64,000 nucleotides of DNA from Bryobacterales bacterium. Its GTDB lineage: Bacteria > Acidobacteriota > Terriglobia > Bryobacterales > UBA6623. Under the pieces are notes generated by a model. That model saw only the letters and a list, made by a program, of their open reading frames with translations, was not told the origin of the DNA and did no database searches. The position numbers were made by a program, and so were the translations under genes. This document shows positions 23,379 to 30,394 of this stretch, piece after piece. The stretch covers positions 497,846 to 561,845 of the forward strand of contig CBDCLH010000008.1 in the NCBI GenBank assembly GCA_965218615.1, written 5' to 3'. How positions within the stretch are numbered: position 1 is the first letter of the stretch; each line of letters opens with the position of its first letter.

Positions 23379-24149
23379 GTGTCCGTTTCCGTCCAGTGTC
23401 CGACCTGCCAAGATACCGGCTGGGCTCAGGTCGAAACACCCCGTGGCCTCGCTGCGAAGCGTTGCGACTGCTTCCGCCAGCAAGAGCACGACGGCCGCTA
23501 CCGGCAGATCGGTGTGCCGACCCGCTTCCTCAGCGCGAGCCTCGACAACTTCAGCGCGGGCAGCTTCCGCAAGAACAAGGCCGAGTACAACGCCCTGACG
23601 GCCGCGATGAAGACCGCCAAGAGCTTTGGGGACGAGTTTCCGGTCTGCCGGCGGAGGGGCCTCCTGTTTCACGGCGGATCCACCACCAAGAGAACGCACC
23701 TCGCCGTCGCGACGCTGAAATTGCTGGCCGACCGCGGTTTCACGTGCTTGTTCTGCGATTACTATCAGCTGCTGCAGACGCTTCGGGAACGCAGCGACCA
23801 GGATCCGGCGCTGGTCGAGCAGAGCAAGGAAACCAACCGCCAAGTCTTCGAGGCGGACATCCTTCTCCTGGACTCTCTGGGAGAACACCGCCGGACTGAC
23901 TGGGCGGTCGACACCATCGCCGGTATCATCAAGCACCGCTACAACGAAGACAAGGGCTTGATCGTCACGACCAATCTCCCTCTCGGGAACGAGGCGCGGA
24001 AGCGCTCCGGGGGCGCCCCCGAAATGCGCGCCTATGCGCCTGTGCCCGACACCCTGGCCAACCGCATTGGGGACGACAGCGTCTCGAGGCTACGCGATCA
24101 CTGCGCGGCGGTAGCGCTTCCGAAACCCGCTGCCGAGCCCTCCAATTAG
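23379..24149 (+). CDS. DnaC/DnaI-like AAA+ helicase-loader paralog with N-terminal zinc-ribbon and degenerate Walker motifs
   Basis: CPTCQDTGW..KRCDC, then IGVPTRFLSASLDNF, GLLFHGGSTTKRTHLAVA (P-loop position), ADILLLDSLGEHRRTDW (Walker B position), IIKHRYNEDKGLIVTTNL. Confidence 0.7.
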   Translation: MSVSVQCPTCQDTGWAQVETPRGLAAKRCDCFRQQEHDGRYRQIGVPTRFLSASLDNFSAGSFRKNKAEYNALTAAMKTAKSFGDEFPVCRRRGLLFHGGSTTKRTHLAVATLKLLADRGFTCLFCDYYQLLQTLRERSDQDPALVEQSKETNRQVFEADILLLDSLGEHRRTDWAVDTIAGIIKHRYNEDKGLIVTTNLPLGNEARKRSGGAPEMRAYAPVPDTLANRIGDDSVSRLRDHCAAVALPKPAAEPSN

Positions 24150-25108
24150 CCCTGGCCTCCAGCGGCCGGCCAGGCCCGACGGCTCGCTGCGGTAAGGGAT
24201 TCGCGGTGACGTTCCGCGATTAATCCGGCTACCTCGCCACGGAACAAGCTCCGGCGCCGCACCACCAAGCCCACGGCCTGGGCCGCCCCGCCCAGCACCG
24301 CCTCGCGCGGCGTGCCGCCTCTGCGCAACTCGCGCACCGCAGGCACTCTCTGCTTCTTGCTCAGCTTGTCGCCCGCCGGGTCGCGCACGAGCGGGTGATG
24401 GAAGTAGAACGGCGCCTGGCTCCGCCCCAGGATCCGCGCCAGCCGCAGCTGGCGCCCAGTCGACTCCAAAAGATCCTCGCCTCGGACGACCCAATCCACG
24501 TCCTGGCGGAAATCGTCCACGGTCACGGTGAACTGGTAGCTCCACTGCCCAGTTCGGTCGCGCAGCAGCAGGTCGCCGCACTGCCGTTCGGGCCTCTGGA
24601 CTTGCGGCCCCAGGAGGCCGTCGGTGAAGCGTTCCGGTGGCATGTCCTGCTCCCAGGCGAGGCGGAGGCCATGGGGCACTCCGGCGGGGTGATGCGCCGC
24701 CCTGCAGTGTCCGGGATAGACTCGCTCGCCGTGCGCCCCTGGCCCCGCTTCGCCCGCCAGGCTCTTGCGGCTGCAGACGCAGCGATAGACTTGTCGAGTG
24801 CGAGACAGAGCCCGCAGCGCCTCCTCATAGACGGCGCCGCAGTCGCTCTGGCGATAGTCGCTGGCGCCTTCGCAGATCGGATTCGTCGGCTCGAATCCCA
24901 GCCAATCCAGGTCCTCGAGGATCGCCGCTTCGTATTGCGGCCGGCAGCGCTGCCGGTCGTGGTCCTCGATGCGCACAAGGACTTCGGCCCCCAGGAGTTC
25001 GGCGAGCCCCCACACGTACAGCATGTGAGCCACGTGGCCAAGATGCAGGTAGCCCGTGGGGCTCGGAGCGAAGCGCGTAAGCGACCTCTTGGATCCTGAG
25101 CGAACCAC
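24146..25108 (-). CDS. gluQ: Glutamyl-Q tRNA(Asp) synthetase
   Basis: TRFAPSPTGYLHLGH (HIGH), VRIEDHD, YRQS, YRCVCSRK, YPGHC, LLRDRTG.WSYQFTVTVDD, VVRGEDLL.ST.RQ, DKLSKKQ. About 320 aa with no anticodon-binding domain. GTG start. Confidence 0.85.
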   Translation of the reverse strand: MVRSGSKRSLTRFAPSPTGYLHLGHVAHMLYVWGLAELLGAEVLVRIEDHDRQRCRPQYEAAILEDLDWLGFEPTNPICEGASDYRQSDCGAVYEEALRALSRTRQVYRCVCSRKSLAGEAGPGAHGERVYPGHCRAAHHPAGVPHGLRLAWEQDMPPERFTDGLLGPQVQRPERQCGDLLLRDRTGQWSYQFTVTVDDFRQDVDWVVRGEDLLESTGRQLRLARILGRSQAPFYFHHPLVRDPAGDKLSKKQRVPAVRELRRGGTPREAVLGGAAQAVGLVVRRRSLFRGEVAGLIAERHRESLTAASRRAWPAAGGQG

Positions 25109-25189
25109 GTCCCGGAAAACGCACCCCCGTAACCGCAGGCCGTCCGTGCGCCGTGGGCAGTCCGGAGTTCTCGCAGCGGCCGCCAGCGT

Positions 25190-27430
25190 TCAGTTCAATT
25201 GCAGCGAGACGGAGTTGGACGCGCCCAATCCGTTCGCCGCGCTCACCGACAGGCTGCTGAGGTCCTCGAACGCGCCCTCGTCCAAAGTGAATTCCACCGT
25301 GGCAGTGAACTGGCTGCCGAAGGCGGCCGATTGGTTCCCGCCGTAATAGGTGCTGAAGCTCGACCCAACGTCCGCCTCAAGGCTGGGCGTGGTCAGATGG
25401 GAACCCGAGACGCCCGAGAACGAGAAGGAAAGCGAATCGACCGTACGAGACGTCGCGTAGCCGGTGATTGCCACGCTGAACCGGCCCTGTCCTGTCGAGC
25501 CGAGCGCCGCCCTCTGCAGAACGGGCGCAGCTTCCAGGACCTCGAAGCGTAGTTCGGGTTCGGTGTCGGGTGTGATGTCGACGCCTCCAGACTGCCCGTC
25601 CGCGTTGCCTTGGCCGCCAGGGGCTGCGCTCGAGCCAGTTCTCGTGTCCACGAAGAACTGAGCCGTCACAGTGATCCCACCCGCGACGGTGCCGGTCTGG
25701 AAGGTGTTCGTCGAAGCGTTGCCGGCGAACACCGCTTTGGTTTCGCCGGCCGGAATCTCGAAGACCGCCTGCCGACCTCCAGTTGCCCACTGGATCGCCG
25801 GATCGTTCGTGAACGCCCGCGTTTCGAACACGAGAAGCAAGACGCCCACAATGTCGGTGGGATACGGCTGCTCCAAGCCCACCTCGAGCGGGATCTGCTC
25901 CGCCGAACTCACCACCCCGCCCGCCTCCGAGAACCGAACCTCCGGCAAATCCACGATCTCCACCCGAAACCGCAACTCTGGCGCCGGGTCGGGTGTAATG
26001 TCAATCGCCCATAGCTCGATGGTGAACCGCGCCGTGACCGTGATCTCACCTACCGCCCGCGCCGTCTGGAAGTCGGTCATGGCGGCGCCACTCGCGAATA
26101 CCGCCGCTGTCTCTCCGGCCGGAATCCGGAAGCTGGTTCGCGGGCCACCCCCCGCCCACTGCGCGCCGGGGTCACTCCCTAATTCCTGCGGCTCGAAATC
26201 AAATTGCAAGGTTCCCGCGATATCCGACGGATACGGCCGCGCCAAGCTCAACCCCAATGGGACTTGCTCAGCCGGCCCCACGACGCCGCCCGCCTCGGAG
26301 AACAGCACCCCCGGCAACTCCGGCACGTCCGCACGGAGCGGAAAGAACGCGTCGCCGATCAGCAGTTCGCCGCTCAGTTCGCCCAGGGCGCCGGCGACCG
26401 GCGCAATCCGGACGCTGAAGCTCTCACCCGGCTCCACGTTGTAGGGGAAATTGGGGCTCTCCACGATCCGAAAATCTCCCGTCAGACGGATGGCGTCGAT
26501 GCGTTGCACGCTCTGGCGGATGTTCCGGGCGACGATCTCGATCGTCGCATCCTGGCCACCAAAGACGACGACGTCGCCGGACTGCACATCTCGTGTAGGA
26601 CCGACCGTGGAGGCGTCTTGGTACGAGACGAGCCGGTACCGCAGGAGGTCGCCCCCCACGCCGGCCAGGACGAACTGCTGGAGGCCGACGCCGAACTCGA
26701 GGCGCAACTCGCCTTGATACGCCGCAGTCCGGGTGGGTTCGAACGCCAGCTCGAAACTCAGGTCCTGGCCTGGCTGCAGCTTCGCCGGAAGCGTCGGCGG
26801 GCTCGCGATCGCGAACGGAGATCCACCGTCGATCCGCACGGAGCGCAGCGTTCCCGGCCCGCTGCCCGTGTTGGACAGGATCAATGTCGCCGCCGTGGCG
26901 CGCGCGACAGGCCTGTGCCCGAAGTCCAGCACGCCCCCCGGGGCCACGCCGCGCTGGGTCGCGCCCGGCAGCACATAACTGAGCGAGTACGCCGGAACCC
27001 GACCGAGCAGCTGAATGTTGTAGACGAGCTCTTCGGGCTCGTCCTCGAAATCCGTTTGGCGCACCGTCAGTTCGAGCGTCGCCCGGAAAGGACCGGGCCC
27101 AGTCGGAAGGAATAAGATCAGCATCTCGTAAGTGATCGTGTTTCGGATCAAGATAGGCAGTTTCGAGGTCTCTAGGTCGTACGAGAATTCGGACGAGCCC
27201 CTGATTCGCACCGTGCGTAGGGAGATCGTTCTGTCAGCTGGTGGGTCGAAAGTCAGACGCAAACGCTTGGCGACACGCCGCCCAACCCCTTCGGAGTCGA
27301 GGATCAGCGTCTCTCCCAGGGAGGAGGCGTCCTCCACGTCTTCCACACTGAGGGTCAGTTGGGCGCCAAGCGGCACGATCGAAAACGCCCCGAGGAGCAG
27401 GGTTGCAATCGATTGGGAAACCGTCTTCAT
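25190..27430 (-). CDS. Secreted multi-domain beta-sandwich (Ig-like / ASH-choice-of-anchor-D-like) protein, 746 aa
   Basis: Signal IATLLLGAFSIVPLGAQ. Repeated modules of the pattern LDFG..ATLILSNTGSGPGTLRSVRIDG.SPF..L.PGQ..SFELAFEP. There are two tandem ~125-aa repeats and a distinct C-terminal domain. I see no catalytic motif. Confidence 0.75.
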   Translation of the reverse strand: MKTVSQSIATLLLGAFSIVPLGAQLTLSVEDVEDASSLGETLILDSEGVGRRVAKRLRLTFDPPADRTISLRTVRIRGSSEFSYDLETSKLPILIRNTITYEMLILFLPTGPGPFRATLELTVRQTDFEDEPEELVYNIQLLGRVPAYSLSYVLPGATQRGVAPGGVLDFGHRPVARATAATLILSNTGSGPGTLRSVRIDGGSPFAIASPPTLPAKLQPGQDLSFELAFEPTRTAAYQGELRLEFGVGLQQFVLAGVGGDLLRYRLVSYQDASTVGPTRDVQSGDVVVFGGQDATIEIVARNIRQSVQRIDAIRLTGDFRIVESPNFPYNVEPGESFSVRIAPVAGALGELSGELLIGDAFFPLRADVPELPGVLFSEAGGVVGPAEQVPLGLSLARPYPSDIAGTLQFDFEPQELGSDPGAQWAGGGPRTSFRIPAGETAAVFASGAAMTDFQTARAVGEITVTARFTIELWAIDITPDPAPELRFRVEIVDLPEVRFSEAGGVVSSAEQIPLEVGLEQPYPTDIVGVLLLVFETRAFTNDPAIQWATGGRQAVFEIPAGETKAVFAGNASTNTFQTGTVAGGITVTAQFFVDTRTGSSAAPGGQGNADGQSGGVDITPDTEPELRFEVLEAAPVLQRAALGSTGQGRFSVAITGYATSRTVDSLSFSFSGVSGSHLTTPSLEADVGSSFSTYYGGNQSAAFGSQFTATVEFTLDEGAFEDLSSLSVSAANGLGASNSVSLQLN
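25535..26326 (-). repeat. Internal tandem duplication of a ~125-140-aa domain inside the 746-aa protein
   Basis: Copy 1 (aa ~369-491): LPGVLFSEAGGVVGPAEQVPLGLSLARPYPSDIAGTL..AQWAGGGPRTSFRIPAGETAAVFASGAA..ITVTARF..DITPDPAPELRFRV. Copy 2 (aa ~494-632): LPEVRFSEAGGVVSSAEQIPLEVGLEQPYPTDIVGVL..IQWATGGRQAVFEIPAGETKAVFAGNAS..ITVTAQF..DITPDTEPELRFEV. Confidence 0.8.
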
Positions 27431-27485
27431 GGCTTTTCTTTCGCGATTGTCCTGGGAACGCCCGGGCCGTTTGGCAGACGCCTCG

Positions 27486-28064
27486 TCAGCGCGGCGGCGA
27501 GACCCCCACAGAGCCTAGCCGGATGGTCGTCGGCGTGACGCTATCCGACTCGCTCCGCAAGGCAGCCGCCACGATCGCGATCGTCGCTGCGGCGCTGATC
27601 GCGGCGATCATCTTCCAACCGATGCCCCGGCGCTTCGGCTTCGGCTCGCCCGGAGCGACTGCGTTGGACTGCGTGATCGCCGTTCCCGCCGACATGTTGT
27701 TGAATTCCGCCTCCACCTCGATCTGGAAGGCGCCCTCGAGTGTATTCGGCAGCATTCCGGAAACGCGGACCCGGCCCTCCTCGTCCGTGGTCATGGTGGC
27801 CACGCGCGACGCGCCGAAGAACGTAACGCTGGGGCCCGATGCCGGCGCGCGCAGTGTCACCGTAGCCTTCGGGATCGGTTGGCCCGCGGAATCGACAACC
27901 TCGATCAGCAGTTCGACAGCCACGTTTCTGTTGATGTTGTTGATCCCGCCGTCGCCCGCCAGAATCCGGATCTGGATCGCGCTGTCCACGCCTCGCACGA
28001 CCGGCGGGAAGGCCAAAAGGACGCTCAGAGCGACAGCCAGGATCTGGTAGAAGGACTGAACCAT
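27486..28064 (-). CDS. Signal-peptide, single Ig-like (Big-like) domain protein with C-terminal TM anchor, 192 aa
   Basis: Signal ILAVALSVLLAFPPVVRG. Domain: IEVVDSAGQPIPKATVTLRAP..VTFFGASRVATMTTDEEGRVRV..GAFQIEVEA. TM helix WKMIAAISAAATIAIVAAAL. SD GGAGG lies 5 nt before the ATG. Confidence 0.7.
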   Translation of the reverse strand: MVQSFYQILAVALSVLLAFPPVVRGVDSAIQIRILAGDGGINNINRNVAVELLIEVVDSAGQPIPKATVTLRAPASGPSVTFFGASRVATMTTDEEGRVRVSGMLPNTLEGAFQIEVEAEFNNMSAGTAITQSNAVAPGEPKPKRRGIGWKMIAAISAAATIAIVAAALRSESDSVTPTTIRLGSVGVSPPR

Positions 28065-28215
28065 GAAACCTCCGGGCCAGCGGTGCCGCCCCCGAGATGC
28101 GCGGCCTCAACGAATACAGTCTTGGACCGGCCTCGCAGGCCTTGCAGTACTGAAATCATAGAGACGAGAAGACCGGAAGTGGGGTTACAGTCCCGGCAGG
28201 ACTGCGCAGCGGCCG

Positions 28216-29409
28216 CTACGCTCCTGCGGCCACGGCCTGCCCCACCCTGCGGAAGCCGAGATCCTCGAGCAGGTCGGCGATATCTTCGTCCGTCAGCCCC
28301 TTGCGCCGGTCGGCCAAGCGGGTGAAGGCCTCGTACACGGTGCGGGTCTGTTGCCTGTCCAGGTCCCCGTACCCCAGATCTGCGACCCGCTGATGCAACG
28401 CGTGCCGGCCGCTGTGCTTGCCGAGGATCAACTCCGAAGCCGGCACACCGACCGATTCCGGGGTCATGATCTCGTACGTCGTAGGGTGCTTGAGATAGCC
28501 GTCCTGATGGATCCCGGCTTCGTGCGCAAACGCATTGCGGCCTACGATCGCCTTGTTCGGCTGCGGCCCGAACGCGATGCACGCGCTCAGCGTGCGGCTC
28601 GCATCGTACAGCTTCGTCGCGTCGATCCCGCAGTGGAACGGCACGCGGTCCGAGCGGACCTTCATGATCGCCACCACTTCCTCGAGGGAGCAATTACCGG
28701 CACGCTCGCCGATGCCGTTGATCGCGCACTCGATCTGGCGCGCACCGGCATGCAGCGCCGCGATCGAGTTGGCGACCGCCAGCCCGAGGTCGTCGTGGGT
28801 GTGGACGCTCACCTCCGCGCGCCCCTCCACCGCGTCCACGACCTCCGCGATCGTCTCCGCGTAGTCGTCCGGTGTCATGTAGCCCACGGTATCCGGGATG
28901 TTCACCACATTGGCGCCCGCCTCCACGGCCGCCCGGGAGACCCGGCACAGGTAGTCCATCTCGGTGCGCGTCGCATCCTCTGCGGAGAATTCCACATCAT
29001 CCACAAAGCGCTTGGCAAGTTCGACAGCTTGCACGGCCTCCTCCAGAACCTGCTCCTGACTCTTGTTGAACTTGTACCTCAGGTGGATCTCGCTCGTGGC
29101 GATGAAGCAGTGGATGCGAGGACGAGGATGGCCGTCAAGCGACGCCGCAGCCCGCTCAATGTCGATCGGCACCGCCCGAGCCAAGGCCGCGATATGCGCC
29201 CCGGGATGCTCACGGCAGACCGCCCGGACCGCGTCGAAGTCTCCCTCCGATGCGATCGGGAACCCGGCTTCGATCAGATCGACGCCCATCTCGACGAGCG
29301 ACCGGGCTACGCTCAGCTTTTCGGGTGTCGTCATGCTGCAGCCCGGCGACTGCTCGCCGTCCCGCAGCGTGGTGTCAAAAATGTGGACCTGTTCGGACAC
29401 GCGATTCAA
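28216..29409 (-). CDS. 2-isopropylmalate synthase / homocitrate synthase family enzyme, short form (no LeuA C-terminal regulatory domain)
   Basis: VHIFDTTLRDGEQSPG..IEAGFP..IHCFIATSEIH..VEFSAEDATRT..VNIPDTVGY..VHTHDDLGLAVANS..ECAINGIGERAGN..FAHEAGIHQDG. It is 397 aa with a TTG start. Confidence 0.8.
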   Translation of the reverse strand: MNRVSEQVHIFDTTLRDGEQSPGCSMTTPEKLSVARSLVEMGVDLIEAGFPIASEGDFDAVRAVCREHPGAHIAALARAVPIDIERAAASLDGHPRPRIHCFIATSEIHLRYKFNKSQEQVLEEAVQAVELAKRFVDDVEFSAEDATRTEMDYLCRVSRAAVEAGANVVNIPDTVGYMTPDDYAETIAEVVDAVEGRAEVSVHTHDDLGLAVANSIAALHAGARQIECAINGIGERAGNCSLEEVVAIMKVRSDRVPFHCGIDATKLYDASRTLSACIAFGPQPNKAIVGRNAFAHEAGIHQDGYLKHPTTYEIMTPESVGVPASELILGKHSGRHALHQRVADLGYGDLDRQQTRTVYEAFTRLADRRKGLTDEDIADLLEDLGFRRVGQAVAAGA

Positions 29410-29441
29410 CCTCTAGGCCCTAGTAGAGCGTATCCGCCAGA

Positions 29442-29456
29442 ATAAAGCAAATTTAT
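29442..29456. promoter_or_regulatory. LysR-type T-N11-A dyad in the AT-rich divergent intergenic region
   Basis: ATAAAGCAAATTTAT (ATAAA-N5-TTTAT) lies between the divergent IPMS-like gene (start 29409) and the LysR gene (start 29486). It overlaps a TATAAT hexamer at 29454-29459. Confidence 0.5.
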
Positions 29457-29485
29457 AATATTTGGAGATGAGATAACATTCAGAA

Positions 29486-30394
29486 ATGGATCTTGCGCTC
29501 CTGCGCCTGTTCGAAACGGTCGCGGACGAGGGTAGCTTCTCCCGCGCGGGGCAGAAGCTGCGGCGGTCGCAGCCAGCCATCTCGTTGGCCCTCAAGCGCC
29601 TCGAAGAGGACCTCGGAGTGCAGCTGATCGACCGCTCGTCCCGCACGCTACGCCTGACCGATGCCGGCCGGGAGATCTCTGGCTACGCGAAGCAGTTCCT
29701 GGGGCTCGAACGGAAGATGCGCGTCGCCCTGTCGGAACTGCGCGACTTGCAGGCCGGCAAGCTCACGGTAGGGGCCAATGAGTCGACCGCGCTGTACTTG
29801 CTCGGACACGTCGAAGCCTTCCGCCGACGGTACCCGGGCATCCAGGTCGAGCTGCGCCGGAGCCTGTCCAGCCGCATCCCCGAAGCCGTCCACGAGGGTT
29901 CGCTGGAACTCGGCGCGATCAGCTACGACCCGGGCGATCCCAAGCTGCGGATCTTTCACTTGTATGAGGACCGGCTGACGTTCGTCGTGTCCCCGCAGCA
30001 CCGCCTGGCCGGGCGCCGCAGGATCAGCATCACGGAACTCGGCGAGGAGACCTTCATCGCCCACAACGTGGTGTCGCCATACCGCGCCAGGGTGATTGAA
30101 ACTTTCCGTCGGCACCAAGTGCCACTCAACATGGCGATTGAAATGCCGACCGTCGAGACCATTCGGCGTCTGGTGCAGCGCAACCTTGGCGTCGCGTTCC
30201 TGCCCAAGATGTGTGTCGAGCAGCAGATCCGCAGCGGCGCCTTGCGGGAAGTGGGGGTGCGCGAGCTGGTCCTCGAACGGACCATTCGGCTCATCTACCC
30301 GGCTCGCAGGACGCTCTCCCAGGCGTCCCGAGCGTTCCTCGAACTGGTGGGCGAGGCGGTGCCACCCGCCTCCGGAGCGTCTCCCGACGGCTGA
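29486..30394 (+). CDS. LysR family transcriptional regulator
   Basis: N-terminal wHTH LRLFETVADEGSFSRAGQKLRRSQPAISLALKRLEEDLGVQLIDR, plus a LysR substrate-binding domain. Confidence 0.9.
   Translation: MDLALLRLFETVADEGSFSRAGQKLRRSQPAISLALKRLEEDLGVQLIDRSSRTLRLTDAGREISGYAKQFLGLERKMRVALSELRDLQAGKLTVGANESTALYLLGHVEAFRRRYPGIQVELRRSLSSRIPEAVHEGSLELGAISYDPGDPKLRIFHLYEDRLTFVVSPQHRLAGRRRISITELGEETFIAHNVVSPYRARVIETFRRHQVPLNMAIEMPTVETIRRLVQRNLGVAFLPKMCVEQQIRSGALREVGVRELVLERTIRLIYPARRTLSQASRAFLELVGEAVPPASGASPDG

Follow-up and report, generated by a model that had tools for sequence, protein, structure and literature searches.

A conserved gene pair of Bryobacterales as a possible two-gene form of a widespread, undescribed cell-envelope cassette

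We analysed a 64,000-nucleotide stretch of a Bryobacterales genome (contig CBDCLH010000008.1; hereafter the window) for the nature of two adjacent genes that encode predicted exported proteins with immunoglobulin (Ig)-like domains. The small gene (27486..28064, minus strand) is a 192-aa open reading frame (ORF) and the large gene (25190..27430, minus strand) a 746-aa ORF with its stop codon at 25190-25192; the intergenic gap from the small to the large gene is 55 nt (27431-27485). A GGAGG Shine-Dalgarno sequence is located at 28069-28073, 4 nt 5' of the ATG of the small gene. Both co-directional ORFs, the gap and the ribosome-binding site had been described in a first-pass annotation of the window, and all were recovered at the same positions. 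The pair is flanked by a leuA-like gene upstream and a gluQ-like gene downstream. The locus is ordinary-looking yet genuinely uncharacterised, and it belongs to a large undescribed cassette family.

Signal-peptide and transmembrane assignments for both proteins are based on hydropathy, sequence pattern and the secondary structure of AlphaFold2 (AF2) models. The small protein has a hydrophobic N-terminus (aa 4-27), with a predicted signal peptide at approximately aa 1-25 and AXA-like cleavage contexts in its homologues. The rest of the protein comprises a beta-sandwich resembling CarboxypepD_reg and MG domains (aa 30-134, nt 27663-27977, minus strand), modelled with a predicted local distance difference test (pLDDT) score of 70-89, a basic linker (KPKRRG), a transmembrane helix (aa 150-169, nt 27558-27617, minus strand), where the AF2 helix coincides with the hydrophobic peak (Kyte-Doolittle value 2.04), and a tail of 23 aa that ends in ...VGVSPPR, the family consensus being VGxPR-COOH. 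This is the layout proposed in the first-pass annotation (signal-like N-terminus, single beta-sandwich, C-terminal transmembrane helix and short tail), with which hydropathy and the AF2 model agree. The sandwich had also been called 'Big/invasin-like', a description that holds at the level of the fold (AF2, Foldseek) but not as a family assignment, the score against Big_1 (PF02369) being 23.4 versus a cut-off of 34.9. CarboxypepD_reg (PF13620) likewise stays below its cut-off (30.8 versus 32.3), and the only Pfam model that the small protein formally passes is MG4 (PF17789; 26.1 versus 24.7). Foldseek searches of the PDB with the AF2 model of the small protein retrieved generic Ig/MG-fold structures, the best of which include the MG domains of C3 and C5.

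The large protein also starts with a hydrophobic segment (aa 7-29), has a predicted signal peptide at aa 1-24 and ends in ...SNSVSLQLN. With a net charge of -37 its mature form is acidic, and Thr, Ser, Gly and Ala are abundant in it; neither protein of the pair contains Cys. The AF2 model (mean pLDDT 80.3) consists of six beta-sandwich domains, in line with the approximately six modules claimed earlier: D1 (aa 24-145), D2 (146-259), D3 (260-367), R1 (368-490), R2 (491-631) and the C-terminal domain (632-746). These domains group into three regions. The signal peptide and a 'passenger' composed of D1-D3 (aa 25-367), which are ASH/choice-of-anchor-D-like as judged from the AF2 model and weak internal similarity, are encoded at 26330..27430 (minus strand). 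A spacer repeat, R1, follows (25961..26329, minus strand). R2 and the C-terminal domain, encoded at 25193..25960 (minus strand), form a C-terminal module that corresponds to the profile of a widespread family described below. R1 and R2 constitute a tandem repeat with 52% identity, which the first-pass annotation had not mentioned, and the number of repeat copies varies among orthologues. R2 contains a low-complexity insert, DTRTGSSAAPGGQGNADGQSGG, rich in Gly, Ser, Ala and Gln (aa 598-614, 25589-25639, minus strand; pLDDT <50), which is shared solely by the window protein and the relatives nearest to it; in other orthologues a different segment of ∼20 aa occupies this position.

D2 is the only domain of the large protein with significant matches to Pfam and NCBIfam families, all within aa 163-245. 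It passes the cut-offs of PF22073 (Cep192_D4; 37.8 versus 35.5) and PF22544 (HYDIN/CFA65/VesB-like Ig; 33.4 versus 25.5) over aa 167-245, whereas its score against ASH (PF15780) is 18.7, under the cut-off of 27, and that against choice_anch_D (NF012200) is 42.2 bits (E 9e-11, aa 163-245), under the cut-off of 45, so that D2 does not formally belong to this family. D1 and D3 resemble D2 weakly (BLAST E 0.02 to 1e-4). Of the three ASH/choice-of-anchor-D-like modules recognised earlier, D2 is therefore supported by Pfam matches, and the other two by their weak resemblance to D2. The top Foldseek matches of the large-protein model in the PDB were ciliary ASH-domain proteins (CEP192 and the PapD-like domains of HYDIN), along with generic Ig structures; Ig chains of the S-layer proteins EA1 (8opr) and SbsC (5ftx) were also retrieved, with template-modelling (TM) scores of 0.10-0.25, below the ciliary ASH proteins. 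Searches of Pfam and NCBIfam, of PDB sequences and, with Foldseek, of PDB structures thus returned only generic Ig-fold matches, and the earlier statement that neither protein can be assigned to a characterised system stands.

Homologues of the two proteins were found in metagenome-assembled genomes of Bryobacterales/Terriglobia. A tblastn survey yielded 47 loci, 44 of which offered sufficient downstream DNA together with a small-protein homologue of at least 49% identity, and in all 44 the large gene lies directly 3' of the small gene. Across Bryobacterales the small protein is 62-91% identical and nearly always 191-193 aa long. Orthologues of the large protein share 41-55% identity overall, and their lengths increase in steps of ∼122 aa (746, ∼865, ∼990, ∼1110, 1234 and so on) because the repeat is present in 1 to ∼8 copies. 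Identity is unevenly distributed along the large protein, reaching 58-77% in the C-terminal domain versus 29-53% in the passenger. Mean pairwise distances calculated for 29 orthologous loci were 0.17 for the leuA-like product, 0.27 for the small protein, 0.38 for the gluQ-like product, 0.39 for the C-terminal domain and 0.53 for the N-terminal passenger; the small protein is thus better conserved than the product of the neighbouring gluQ-like gene.

The C-terminal module has a distribution of its own. A profile of 254 positions, covering the last repeat and the C-terminal domain, was used for an exhaustive search of 1.84 billion cluster representatives (50% identity) and matched 2,264 proteins at E<=1e-3, of which 385 at E<=1e-30. 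In the window protein, the match covers aa 490-746 of 746 (E 8e-156). In 150 of the 150 matches listed the module ends within a few residues of the protein C-terminus. Its conserved motifs are DDPAIQFxTGGR, QTGTVAG, TGYSTxR and FGSQF. The commonest architecture is a protein of ∼590-730 aa with three or four ASH/choice-of-anchor-D domains in front of the module, and such distant relatives do pass NF012200 (94-136 bits, 3-4 copies). The same module also follows other passengers, including He_PIG in 5-18 copies, PPC, DUF11/Ig_7/fn3, TIG and PKD types. Neither in the window protein nor in distant relatives did the module match any Pfam-A or NCBIfam model; a profile search of the PDB gave chance matches only (RuBisCO small chain, E 0.018), and a search of a plasmid collection gave none. 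Since the module is kept strictly C-terminal whatever the passenger, it is the best candidate for an anchoring or recognition element of the large protein. This modifies the earlier conclusion that the large protein has no sorting signal. Pfam and NCBIfam scans at E<=1 found no PEP-CTERM, LPXTG, GlyGly-CTERM or type IX secretion system (T9SS) Por_Secre_tail C-terminal domain in it, and it has no C-terminal hydrophobic segment; the conclusion is therefore correct for PEP-CTERM, LPXTG and T9SS signals, but it overlooked that the last ∼250 aa are a conserved, strictly C-terminal module. At two metagenomic loci (L056:532-4728 and L058:42-3042) two genes ending in the module stand in tandem, which suggests that a single cassette may have two or more 'client' proteins.

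With the module as seed, a metagenome scan confirmed 511 loci, and the counts given below derive from 80 that were retrieved. A small-protein homologue (E 1e-36 to 1e-74) is encoded upstream, on the same strand, in 36 of the 39 loci with at least 2 kb of sequence upstream of the large gene, and it also precedes at least one large protein of the He_PIG type (L054). The three exceptions include a locus that retains the gene described next (L126) and one (L055) in which a transposase-like ORF (L055:201-1307) lies directly upstream of the large-protein gene; the latter cassette has probably been disrupted. In 6-7 distant loci the small gene abuts the large one (gap of 2-9 nt), an arrangement of two genes as in the window, while in ∼29 loci an ORF of ∼305-370 aa is inserted between them. 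Members of this 'mid' family, present in 41 loci, have a signal peptide or a lipobox and display faint SGL/lactonase beta-propeller signals. Beyond such faint or fold-level signals, neither the small nor the mid protein family matched any Pfam or NCBIfam model. The locus in the window has all three features by which we recognise the cassette, namely the C-terminal module, the small-protein homologue upstream on the same strand, and a transmembrane helix followed by a tail ending in PR. Given the absence of the mid gene, the window pair appears, from these comparisons, to be a reduced two-gene form of a cassette that usually has three genes (small, ∼300-aa beta-propeller-like and large).

The relation between the two genes can be judged from their surroundings. 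The order tatD-metG-larC-lysR / leuA-like-[pair]-gluQ / dnaC-like-accB-accC is syntenic across Bryobacterales, and consequently the pairing within this order alone could reflect frozen gene order. This would be the case if the two proteins were functionally unrelated. However, the pair is retained at some loci whose flanks are unrelated (L005-7 and L045), with a peptidase M10 gene in one case and aldose epimerase, RraA-like and glycosyltransferase genes in the other, and it is likewise present in 36 of 39 loci that are very distant and whose surroundings are wholly different. Mere synteny is thereby excluded, and we regard an unrelated pair as barely credible. Conserved co-occurrence, on the lack of which the first-pass annotation would have given up its pairing of the two proteins, is accordingly observed in both samples (44/44 and 36/39 loci). 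These comparisons support the view that the pairing of the two genes is genuine and maintained by selection.

Clustering of all ORFs from 82 distant loci revealed recurrent neighbours of the cassette. A Wza-like gene (Poly_export/SLBB) is found in 14 of the 57 loci having at least 1.2 kb of downstream sequence, and in 10 of these 14 it is immediately 3' of the large gene (gap of 0-59 nt). Beyond the Wza-like gene come Wzc-like (Wzz/GNVR/AAA_31), Bac_transf, DegT and Polysacc_synt_2 genes. Other distant loci carry genes for DUF4384 and Peptidase_C14-TPR proteins, or for TonB-dependent receptors (CarboxypepD_reg plus OMP_b-brl_4), the latter giving only a hint that the wider family belongs to Acidobacteriota. 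Two loci with He_PIG or TIG passengers (P0314 and L054:3072-6619) share two DUF4384 genes and a gene for a Peptidase_C14 (caspase-like)-TPR protein, and one of them also adjoins a type VI secretion cluster (IcmF/DotU/VasE/ImpE).

The small protein retains its layout over large distances. Homologues with 26-33% identity (L053, L054) keep the signal peptide, the sandwich, the transmembrane helix and a tail ending in VGAPR, and the tail ends in PR in 34 of 41 metagenomic homologues. Two longer versions (P0149 and P0152; 253 and 252 aa) turn into Arg-rich nonsense after approximately aa 130-145 and look like frameshift errors of long-read assembly and not true variants. A solo paralogue or orthologue of 179 aa (P0164; L046:5980-6519 and L049-L052), 41% identical, lacks the PT..V..VGxPR tail; its gene has an arginine decarboxylase gene on one side and, on the other, a MATE transporter gene that converges with it. 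The tail is present in a second solo homologue (P0165, L048), whose gene precedes a TolC-like one. We considered whether the presence of the tail tracks that of the large partner, but the two do not correlate cleanly, the solo L046-type protein being without the tail and P0165 having it.

A promoter-like motif of the extracytoplasmic function (ECF) sigma type, TGTAAC-N17-CGTC, is positioned ∼125 nt 5' of the ATG of the small gene (28163..28189, minus strand) and 27 nt after the stop codon of the upstream leuA-like gene. It is the sole match in the 64-kb window, where 0.01 would be expected. Of 49 related loci, 30 have the motif, at -124 to -128 relative to the ATG; it is absent from a more distant subclade in which a methyltransferase gene is inserted upstream. 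In 14 aligned orthologous regions both elements are invariant while the 17-nt spacer varies freely, a pattern that reads as the signature of a bipartite promoter. The ECF-sigma consensus is AAC (-35) N16/17 CGT (-10), and we take the motif to fit it; expression of the cassette is thus probably driven by an ECF sigma factor of the envelope-stress type. Between the motif and the small gene lies a conserved leader (28065..28162, minus strand) with two potential hairpins, GGCCU..AGGCC and GCCGCGC..GCGCGGC, in addition to the GGAGG sequence. Mean column identity of the ∼125 nt 5' of the small gene is 72% over 14 species, and RNAalifold predicted both hairpins with little covariation (covariation term -0.2). 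An Rfam scan of positions 24000-29600 gave no match. A scan for sigma-70 promoters found no promoter-like site, and a terminator scan found weak intragenic terminator-like sites only.

The product of the leuA-like gene (28216-29409, minus strand) is an HMGL-like/HCS_D2 protein of 397 aa that resembles synthases of 2-isopropylmalate, homocitrate or citramalate and is presumably too short to have the C-terminal regulatory domain of LeuA. Conservation is 78-87%, and the gene always diverges from a LysR regulator gene, beyond which follow larC (Ni insertion), metG and tatD. On the other side of the pair, the gluQ-like gene (24146..25108, minus strand) converges with a DnaC/IstB-like AAA gene (23379..24149, plus strand), the two overlapping by 4 nt (24146-24149); this convergent overlap is kept in related loci.

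How, then, might the two proteins work together? The reading that we favour, although we would give it slightly less than an even chance, is that the pair represents the two-gene Bryobacterales form of a widespread undescribed cassette for tethering or displaying proteins at the cell envelope. The small protein would be exported by the Sec pathway and held in the cytoplasmic membrane by its C-terminal helix, with the short VGxPR tail. The large protein, likewise Sec-exported, would be an Ig-like rod made up of a fast-evolving passenger, the spacer repeat and the C-terminal module of ∼250 aa. The small protein and the module remain constant while the passenger is swapped, which points to the module as a docking or recognition element that would be served by the small membrane protein, possibly assisted in most lineages by the third, beta-propeller-like protein. 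The Ig rod would then be tethered at, or handed to, the envelope, its variable end pointing away from the membrane. As Wza/Wzc genes directly follow the cassette in about one relative out of four, it may help to organise or attach surface polysaccharide or matrix, or serve in adhesion. The architecture of the proteins, the co-occurrence of the genes, the modularity, the neighbourhoods and the promoter motif are observed; we infer the physical interaction of the two proteins, their topology, the outer-membrane passage and the biological role. A broader proposition, namely that the module, the bitopic VGxPR protein and, mostly, the beta-propeller-like protein make up an undescribed anchoring or sorting system of Acidobacteriota-type diderms, which would serve many Ig-repeat passengers and be coupled to Wza/Wzc export, seems to us possible, if doubtful.

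Several observations weigh against a tethering cassette. The basic cluster that precedes the transmembrane helix (aa 142-169 region, nt 27558-27640) contradicts the positive-inside rule, as judged from the sequences of 115 homologues in which the net charge is +3.7 over the 15 aa before the helix and ∼0 after it. With the assumed topology (signal peptide, ectodomain, stop-transfer helix) the conserved tail would be cytoplasmic and hence away from the secreted partner. In a mirror-tree analysis the partial r of the small protein was 0.21 with the C-terminal domain versus 0.51 with the passenger, so that the presumed docking domain is not singled out. Solo homologues of the small protein occur without a large partner (L046/L049-52 and L048), and the mid gene is missing from the window and from all Bryobacterales loci, as are homologues of Wza, Wzc, Bac_transf, CapD and DegT. 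Moreover, in this diderm both proteins have only Sec-type signals, and the analysis revealed neither a route across the outer membrane nor a known sorting signal, so that the cell-surface location and the membrane stalk suggested in the first-pass annotation are conjectural.

Other explanations account for part of these observations. The presence of a Wza-like gene immediately downstream in 10 of 57 relatives, followed by exopolysaccharide (EPS) genes with tight or overlapping spacing, is far above chance for a family with few copies per genome, and it could mean that the pair supplies accessory factors for Wza/Wzc-type export of polysaccharide or for the attachment of a capsule which, comparable in position to gfcABCD, would act on the polymer (its assembly, length or surface retention). 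We consider this unlikely, as no EPS gene is near the cassette in three quarters of the sampled loci, in the window or in any Bryobacterales locus, and swapped passengers and a variable number of spacers suit a displayed protein better than a fixed export accessory; in addition, Pfam and NCBIfam scans detected no similarity to Gfc, Wzi or other known accessory proteins. Variation in spacer number also bears on the possibility of a purely periplasmic complex, in which the membrane-anchored sandwich and a soluble PapD-like (ASH) chain would act in envelope-stress protection, scaffolding or chaperoning. Such a complex would agree with the Sec-type N-terminal signals, which are the only ones present, no known outer-membrane targeting or sorting signal being detected, with the putative promoter of the ECF (envelope-stress) type, and with the PapD-like chaperone fold shared by ASH domains (Pfam; CEP192 and HYDIN in Foldseek). 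However, 1 to ∼8 spacers would shift the length of the rod by tens of nm, as estimated from the usual size of Ig-like domains, which fits poorly to a periplasm of fixed width, and it is exposed proteins that typically have fast-evolving, swappable passengers of the adhesin type (He_PIG, PKD, DUF11, TIG); we therefore judge a periplasmic complex quite unlikely.

It is very improbable, in our estimate, that the large protein builds a lattice of the S-layer or matrix kind, with the small protein as its attachment factor. The acidic (-37), Cys-free, Thr/Ser/Gly/Ala-rich composition of the large protein is one associated with S-layer proteins, and EA1 (8opr) and SbsC (5ftx) are among its many multi-Ig matches in Foldseek; these matches are, however, generic (TM-scores of 0.10-0.25) and ranked below the ciliary ASH proteins, and an S-layer lying outside the outer membrane of a diderm is beyond the reach of an anchor in the inner membrane.

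Acidobacteriota rank with the most abundant bacteria in soil, but to our knowledge almost nothing is known of how they build and decorate their envelope. The cassette family is large: it spans over 2,200 clusters (50% identity), and a single scan confirmed 511 metagenomic loci. Its three conserved components have neither a Pfam or NCBIfam model nor a solved relative. Should the module prove to act in docking or sorting, it would account for the retention of an entire class of 'choice-of-anchor D' and He_PIG-type proteins, provide an annotation handle for thousands of hypothetical proteins, and link the display of surface proteins to exopolysaccharide export and ECF-type envelope signalling in the phylum. 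If, furthermore, the anchoring-system proposition is true, the module would be a new 'choice of anchor' alongside PEP-CTERM/exosortase or T9SS C-terminal domain sorting. Being the minimal version, the two-gene form of Bryobacterales is a convenient test case.

In kind, an envelope or surface Ig-repeat protein with a dedicated partner is already known; the cassette itself is undescribed, and we did not find a description of it in the literature on choice-of-anchor D, DUF1573 or Ig-like proteins near Wza/Wzc in Acidobacteria. Three known types were considered and discarded. An alpha-2-macroglobulin-type thioester protein is ruled out, as neither protein has the Cys needed for a thioester and there is a single MG-like domain; the resemblance of the small-protein sandwich to alpha-2-macroglobulin/complement MG and CarboxypepD_reg domains is at the fold level only, and unlike alpha-2-macroglobulin the small protein is one isolated domain with a transmembrane anchor, without a bait region or a multi-MG architecture. 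Autotransporters and two-partner secretion are ruled out by the AF2 model, where aa 491-746 are two separate units (∼9 and ∼7 strands) and not one barrel; there is no Pfam barrel match, and the neighbours are leuA-like and gluQ-like genes with no adjacent TpsB/Omp85 gene. A metal-binding or nickel-related function, considered in view of the nearby larC and of fold matches to CrdA, FixG and CARDB, was rejected, as no conserved His, Cys or Met motifs are present.

Among characterised loci, the E. coli group-4 capsule genes gfcABCD and the yjbEFGH genes precede wza/wzc homologues, and the rbm matrix-protein genes of Vibrio cholerae reside inside the vps cluster. Small envelope proteins, lipoproteins or beta-sandwich proteins, whose function is poorly understood, are there encoded beside genes for polysaccharide export, as in about a quarter of the relatives of the cassette. 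The analogy is positional only, no sequence similarity being detected, the architectures of these proteins being different and the locus in the window having no EPS genes. The likeness to choice-of-anchor D (NF012200) and to the ASH-HYDIN-VesB Ig families (PF22544, PF22073, PF15780) is that of D2 of the large protein. The choice-of-anchor D domain is found in secreted proteins with differing C-terminal anchors; these families cover the passenger only, and both the conserved C-terminal module and the partner gene are outside them. Compared to the sorting systems PEP-CTERM/exosortase, LPXTG/sortase and T9SS C-terminal domain/PorU-PorV, the element at the C-terminus is here a folded pair of beta-sandwiches of ∼250 aa and not a short motif with a transmembrane helix and a basic tail, its partner is a 192-aa bitopic beta-sandwich protein without protease or transpeptidase features, and nothing seen implies cleavage or covalent attachment. 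What the cassette has in common with all of these systems is the combination of diverse passengers, one conserved C-terminal element and a cognate membrane component encoded nearby, and with PEP-CTERM/exosortase it also shares the recurrent genomic link to Wza/Wzc exopolysaccharide loci.

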